Sequence record: PP384397
Length of the DNA stretch: 41,208 bases
Direction: 5' to 3' (one strand)
Source of the DNA: Teseptimavirus T7
Below the pieces are notes generated by a model, which saw only the letters and a program-made list of their open reading frames with translations, was not told where the DNA came from and searched no databases. Positions 7,056 through 7,115 of this stretch are shown in pieces (the stretch's first letter is position 1; every line of letters starts with the position of its first letter). Position numbers and translations under genes: made by a program.

Positions 7056-7115
7056 AAAGGGGCCGTCAATATCAGAAATAAGACGACGACCCTCGAACGA
7101 TGATGCTCACTCTCG
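7056..7115 (+). other. Synthetic 60-nt linker block of unknown origin (parses as three 20-mers)
   Basis: aaaggggccgtcaatatcag / aaataagacgacgaccctcg / aacgatgatgctcactctcg; not T7, not recognised vector. Confidence 0.6.

Follow-up and report, generated by a model that had tools for sequence, protein, structure and literature searches.

The genome deposited as Teseptimavirus T7 (sequence record PP384397) carries an mCherry cassette downstream of gene 1 (T7 RNA polymerase), whose end lies at 5823, and between the cassette and the resuming phage sequence there is a short piece of DNA. This locus raises the question of where that piece came from and what, if anything, it does in the phage. The stretch analysed (the window, 41,208 nt) comprises the engineered T7 genome in full, including the 160-nt terminal repeat at each end. 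BLAST and a base-by-base comparison with wild-type (WT) T7 (V01146) showed that colinearity stopped at window position 5844 (WT 5843) and restarted at 7116 (WT 5845). The total insert of 1,271 bp was made up of a 60-nt block (5845-5904), the cassette (1,151 bp, 5905-7055) and a second 60-nt block (7056-7115), the latter being the object of this analysis. Downstream of the mCherry stop codon, the cassette contained remnants of a vector multiple-cloning site and a His6 sequence followed by a copy of Tphi. With the repeat finder, the 105 nt of this copy (6951-7055) were 100% identical to the native Tphi (25377-25481), so that the Tphi copy does end at 7055. The right block thus comprised 60 nt exactly and could be read as three 20-mers, aaaggggccgtcaatatcag (7056-7075), aaataagacgacgaccctcg (7076-7095) and aacgatgatgctcactctcg (7096-7115), with atagagggacaaac beginning directly 3' of it at 7116. 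The left block likewise comprised 60 nt exactly and three 20-mers. The earlier note had described the right block as exactly 60 nt in three 20-mers, filling the gap between Tphi and the T7 restart and mirroring the left one in size and layout, a description that agreed with the sequence, the repeat finder and the V01146 comparison.

Table 1. Features at and around the right junction of the mCherry insertion (window coordinates)
Feature	Position	Strand	Remarks
phi1.1A left remnant, -17..-5	5832..5844	+	within gp1-oho1-as annealing part 5825-5844
OHO1	5845..5904	.	left 60-bp orthogonal overhang, three 20-mers, second = GSP2
mCherry cassette	5905..7055	+	amplified from plasmid T7p14-mCherry; identical cassette annotated in PP384395
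Cassette T7 promoter	+1 at 6083	+	consensus; followed by gene-10 leader/RBS
mCherry CDS	6145-6855	+	
oho2-mcherry-as, cassette-annealing 3' part caaaaaacccctcaagaccc	7036..7055	-	end of Tphi copy
OHO2	7056..7115	.	60-bp orthogonal overhang common to mCherry PCR fragment and T7 fragment T7A2; remaining assembly scar
20-mer AAAGGGGCCGTCAATATCAG	7056..7075	+	alphabetical rank 4/6; meets Subramanian 2018 design filters
20-mer AAATAAGACGACGACCCTCG	7076..7095	+	alphabetical rank 5/6; meets Subramanian 2018 design filters
20-mer AACGATGATGCTCACTCTCG	7096..7115	+	alphabetical rank 6/6; meets Subramanian 2018 design filters
phi1.1A right remnant, -3..+6 (atagaggga)	7116-7124	+	native sequence
gp1-oho2-s, T7-annealing 3' part atagagggacaaactcaagg	7116..7135	+	= WT 5845-5864

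The block is the shared tail of two published primers

The primer table of the PHEIGES study (Supplementary Data 2; Levrier et al., Nat Commun 2024, PMC10933291) lists the oligonucleotides gp1-oho2-s, AAAGGGGCCGTCAATATCAGAAATAAGACGACGACCCTCGAACGATGATGCTCACTCTCGatagagggacaaactcaagg, and oho2-mcherry-as, CGAGAGTGAGCATCATCGTTCGAGGGTCGTCGTCTTATTTCTGATATTGACGGCCCCTTTcaaaaaacccctcaagaccc. Both 80-mers aligned to the window with 0 mismatches, gp1-oho2-s to the plus strand at 7056-7135, with the 60-mer as its exact 5' tail, and oho2-mcherry-as to the minus strand at 7036-7115, with the reverse complement of the 60-mer as its 5' tail. Given that 0/100 shuffles produced such an 80-nt match, the agreement was not due to chance. 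The overlap of the two primer matches was exactly 7056-7115, with the end of the cassette (7036-7055) on one side of the joint and WT T7 5845-5864 (7116-7135) on the other. In the same primer table, the left 60-mer was found as the tail of gp1-oho1-as and oho1-mcherry-s (PMC10933291).

According to that study, T7-mC-g1-o was built with these primers from the fragments T7A1, mCherry, T7A2, T7B, T7C and T7D, and its Supplementary Data 6 equates T7_mC-g1-o with PP384397, one of the deposited records PP384393-PP384410 (PMC10933291). Outside the insertion, only two differences separated the window from V01146: an extra A at 1897, following 1896, and an A>G change at 23900, which corresponds to WT 22629 (A22629G) and replaces asparagine 227 of the gene 9 product by serine (N227S). 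The extra A after 1896 and A22629G are the very markers that the PHEIGES authors named for their purchased T7 stock (PMC10933291). From the construct name, the primers and the stock markers we infer that the window is the engineered genome T7_mC-g1-o. Compared with the published OHO1 and OHO2, the sequence, position, length and partner primers were all identical, and compared with the published T7_mC-g1-o construct (same cassette, stock markers and construct name) no difference was found, so that both are the same object (PMC10933291). The block is therefore already known, published down to the primer sequence, and represents a scar left by cloning in a laboratory phage. Its attribution in the earlier note to deliberate design and not to illegitimate recombination was confirmed by its identity with the tail designed for gp1-oho2-s and oho2-mcherry-as (PMC10933291). 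With this origin recognized, neither the 60-nt blocks nor the split phi1.1A, nor the second copies of phi10 and Tphi described below, should be mistaken for natural novelty.

Origin of the 20-mers

As the source of its orthogonal oligonucleotides, the PHEIGES paper names the set of Subramanian, Russ and Ranganathan 2018 (PMC10933291). That set was derived from random 20-mers filtered for primer quality and mutual dissimilarity, of which 166 20-nt primers were validated as non-interacting (PMC7445780). The published filters require a 3' G or C, a GC content of 40-60%, less than 45% A, 20-30% C and the absence of BamHI, EcoRI, HindIII and BsrDI sites (PMC7445780). All six 20-mers of the two blocks passed (3' G/C, GC 45-50%, A at most 40%, C 20-30%), and none of them contained any of the four restriction sites. 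Alphabetical order was moreover maintained across the six units of both blocks, as if a sorted list had been used from its first entry to its sixth. For the second of the three left-hand units, AAACCGGAGCCATACAGTAC, the name 'GSP2' is used in an independent library-construction paper, which fits such a choice. A full-text literature search for all six 20-mers matched GSP2 only, in that one unrelated paper. The OHO2 units thus appear to derive from the 2018 set, as judged by the PHEIGES citation, the agreement with the design filters and the GSP2 precedent. They resemble that set in being 20-nt units that satisfy every published composition and restriction-site filter; the use differs, three primers being concatenated here into a 60-bp annealing arm, whereas the original work used them in PCR to de-multiplex oligo pools (PMC7445780).

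Proposed role in genome assembly

With a probability of about 97%, we read 7056-7115 as OHO2, a designed 60-bp arm of three concatenated primers of the 2018 set that provided an overlap for PHEIGES assembly and is now an inert scar. OHO2 was added as a 5' tail to the cassette reverse primer oho2-mcherry-as and to the T7A2 forward primer gp1-oho2-s, and by virtue of these shared tails the cassette and T7A2 PCR products end in the same 60 bp. In PHEIGES, overlapping PCR fragments are treated briefly with exonuclease III, which exposes complementary single strands, and the annealed mix goes straight into a cell-free TXTL reaction where the genome is expressed and packaged (PMC10933291). Resection of the 3' strands by exonuclease III leaves complementary 60-nt single strands free to anneal, OHO1 linking T7A1 with the cassette on its left side and OHO2 linking the cassette on its right side with T7A2; gap or nick repair and ligation would presumably follow.

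OHO1 and OHO2 were unrelated to each other and without homology to T7, the longest word common to the overhangs and the rest of the window being 10-11 nt. Because of this lack of relatedness, T7A1 and T7A2 cannot join without the cassette. In the published no-insert control no phage was seen, and the assembly was described as 'leak-free', that is, without wild-type phage (PMC10933291). Gibson/SLIC-type overlaps and unique-nucleotide-sequence linkers are comparable in that they too are synthetic, neutral overlaps carried on primer tails, which set the order of the fragments and stay in the product. PHEIGES differs from Gibson/SLIC-type methods in its use of exonuclease III alone, in the immediate transfer to cell-free expression and packaging, and in its 60-bp arms made of pre-validated 20-mers.

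The same cassette was found by megablast in three GenBank phage records, PP384395, PP384393 and PP384396. The first two, T7_mCg17o and T7_mCg10o, bear the title 'Mutant Teseptimavirus T7 clone recombinant', and the third is T7_compile according to Supplementary Data 6 (PMC10933291). Among GenBank phages, BLAST returned one full-length match to the 60-mer, in the engineered phage PP384395, where the identical annotated cassette, OHO1 and OHO2 are located after gene 17. The reuse of OHO2 at another insertion locus shows that the block is portable between constructs.

That several constructs are marked by the same block, and that its units are by origin validated PCR primers and hence usable as such, would also suit a barcode or a diagnostic PCR landing pad for tracking phages in place of an assembly overlap. 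We consider this highly improbable, however, as the stated purpose of the overhangs is to provide overlaps for annealing and leak-free assembly (PMC10933291), the block lies exactly at the fragment ends defined by both primers, and a block that is not unique to one construct is no barcode. OHO2 is thus better regarded as an assembly arm which, in the assembled genome, has no designed function and persists as a scar, flanked by the cassette Tphi on one side and, on the other, by what is left of the phi1.1A initiation region and by the R1.1 hairpin. We accordingly expect the block to be functionally inert in the phage.

The insertion splits the phi1.1A promoter

Comparison with the intact T7 promoter phi1.1A showed that the sequences flanking the inserted blocks are this promoter's own -17..-5 (5832-5844) and -3..+6 (7116-7124) regions. 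The insertion had split phi1.1A between -5 and -3, leaving the two halves 1,271 bp apart, and, compared with the intact promoter, the T at -4 (WT 5844) was missing from the window because the annealing parts of the primers (WT 5824-5843 and 5845-5864) skip that base. The left remnant retained the complete -17..-5 binding region of phi1.1A and faces into the cassette. Downstream of the insertion, phi1.1B was intact (+1 at 7194, 37.0 bits).

To score the junctions, we used a position weight matrix covering -17..+6, built from 17 annotated T7 promoters and applied to 82,372 window positions. The 17 real promoters of the window (16 native plus that of the cassette) scored 26.5-39.9 bits, and all other sites reached 6.9 bits at most. 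With 5.0 bits, the left phi1.1A remnant ranked second among the non-promoter sites of the genome, and the right junction (+1 = 7119) reached -8.7 bits, so that neither junction scored as a promoter on this matrix. Nor was any sigma-70-like promoter or intrinsic terminator pattern detected in 6900-7300.

The junction of gctcactctcg with atagaggga might nevertheless be taken for a cryptic T7 RNA polymerase promoter partly replacing phi1.1A, as it ranks 100th among the 82,372 positions and agrees with the consensus at 9/17 positions over -17..-1, including A-10, C-9, T-8, C-7 and C-5, in addition to the native -3..+6. The mismatches, however, fall at -17, -15 to -11, -6 and -4, so that the AT-rich -17..-13 element is lost except for -16 and C stands for G at -11, a position at which single changes alone reportedly reduce activity severely (T7 promoter mutagenesis of Imburgio et al. 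in 2000). The score lies more than 35 bits below those of the 17 functional promoters, and the intact phi1.1B only 75 nt downstream makes a replacement unnecessary. Promoter activity at the right junction thus seems very unlikely from its sequence, and the same holds for a partial replacement of phi1.1A. The resemblance to a T7 promoter, which the earlier note had called superficial, indeed appears to be so, given -8.7 bits at the junction and a minimum of 26.5 bits among real promoters, and that of the 'ctcac' within the last 20-mer is coincidental; this description does not hold for atagaggga, which is the genuine -3..+6 of phi1.1A, split off by the insertion. Likewise, the statement that an 'extra ctcg' prevents promoter function is better replaced by the count of 9/17 matches over -17..-1 in register with atag(+1), its conclusion being retained in that the junction does not score as a promoter.

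Placement of the scar next to the R1.1 hairpin

The DNA fold of the 60-mer itself was unremarkable (z = -1.24), and Rfam gave nothing at the 60-mer, its one sub-threshold chance match lying elsewhere, in the cassette leader. Directly downstream of the block, a hairpin at 7118-7170 stood out with z = -3.7. We take this hairpin to be the RNase III site R1.1, which on the T7 map is cleaved at WT 5887 (window 7158). In the minimum-energy fold of the RNA 6990-7182, the last CUCUC of the block paired with the GAGGG that normally closes the base of the R1.1 hairpin (7111-7124); in the centroid structure of the same RNA, the native R1.1 stem was retained. Rebooting titres at the gene 1 locus were about 10- to 40-fold lower (PMC10933291). 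It is conceivable, though unlikely, that the scar has some residual effect, in that the predicted CUCUC pairing, combined with the lack of an intact phi1.1A and the presence of Tphi upstream, could alter the processing or expression of genes 1.1-1.3 and perhaps lower the titre. Such interference with R1.1, if true, would be a side effect specific to this construct and no new biological system.

In the same region, an ATG open reading frame of 44 aa (7100-7234, plus strand) starts inside the last 20-mer, crosses the junction and runs through phi1.1B. By eye, no Shine-Dalgarno-like sequence was seen upstream of it, and the frame almost certainly arose incidentally when the two sequences were joined.

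Searches for a natural source

Neither plasmids nor 5,426 E. coli genomes gave a significant BLAST match to the 60-mer, and a 40-mer extending over both joints between the 20-mers had 0 exact matches in 596 Gb of prokaryotic genomes, IMG/VR and JGI metagenomes. Single units did have natural counterparts. The sole exact match of the 20-mer 7056-7075 in the 596 Gb of genomes, in a Marinobacterium MAG, stopped at the unit edges. The 20-mer 7096-7115 matched exactly in four related IMG/VR contigs, in one integrase-like gene, and over 21 nt (E = 0.4) in the site-specific integrase gene of a Segatella hominis plasmid (NZ_CP137560.1, 180786-180806). As the four viral matches have common flanks, they count as a single coincidence. 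Every natural match of a single 20-mer ended at the unit boundary and none was longer than 21 nt, with about 1 match per 20-mer expected by chance in the 1.2e12 positions searched. As the matches of 7096-7115 also illustrate, a random 20-mer may occur in nature even if it was selected as 'orthogonal'.

That the 60 nt are natural DNA of a host, plasmid or other phage, captured by illegitimate recombination when the cassette was inserted, can be dismissed despite these exact single-unit matches, since they stop at the 20-mer boundary and are as many as chance predicts, and neither the joint-spanning 40-mer in the genome, viral and metagenome collections nor the 60-mer in the 5,426 E. coli genomes found a counterpart. 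A natural origin of the 60-mer, whose identification the earlier note had held would speak against its reading, was refuted by these searches together with the PHEIGES primer table.

Other traces of the assembly in this and the sister constructs

Besides the two blocks, the insert contained plasmid-derived passenger DNA, namely some 155 bp of vector backbone (5905-6059) preceding the cassette promoter and an untranslated XhoI-SacI-SmaI-His6-stop multiple-cloning-site stretch (6856-6950). Both presumably come from a pIVEX/pET-type vector, which they resemble. The phi10 promoter and leader were duplicated over 84 nt in direct orientation (6060-6143 and 24152-24235), the leader copy showing one change, C for A at 6109, which abolishes the XbaI site TCTAGA. 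The phi10 and Tphi duplicates are both in direct orientation and lie about 18 kb from their native copies. Recombination between the phi10 or Tphi copies would remove essential genes.

For phage engineering, these genomes illustrate that assembly scars persist in the final product; they can also disappear when repeats flank them, as in the gene 10 construct T7_mCg10o (PP384393). There, OHO1 was kept (2625-2684) and OHO2 was absent, even though the primer table includes a gp10-oho2-s primer (PMC10933291). At 3740-3860 of that record, the cassette Tphi copy is joined directly to the sequence that natively follows Tphi (gene 11). Such a joint is what recombination between the two directly repeated Tphi copies, or their annealing during assembly, would produce, with the loss of OHO2 and the 10B tail.
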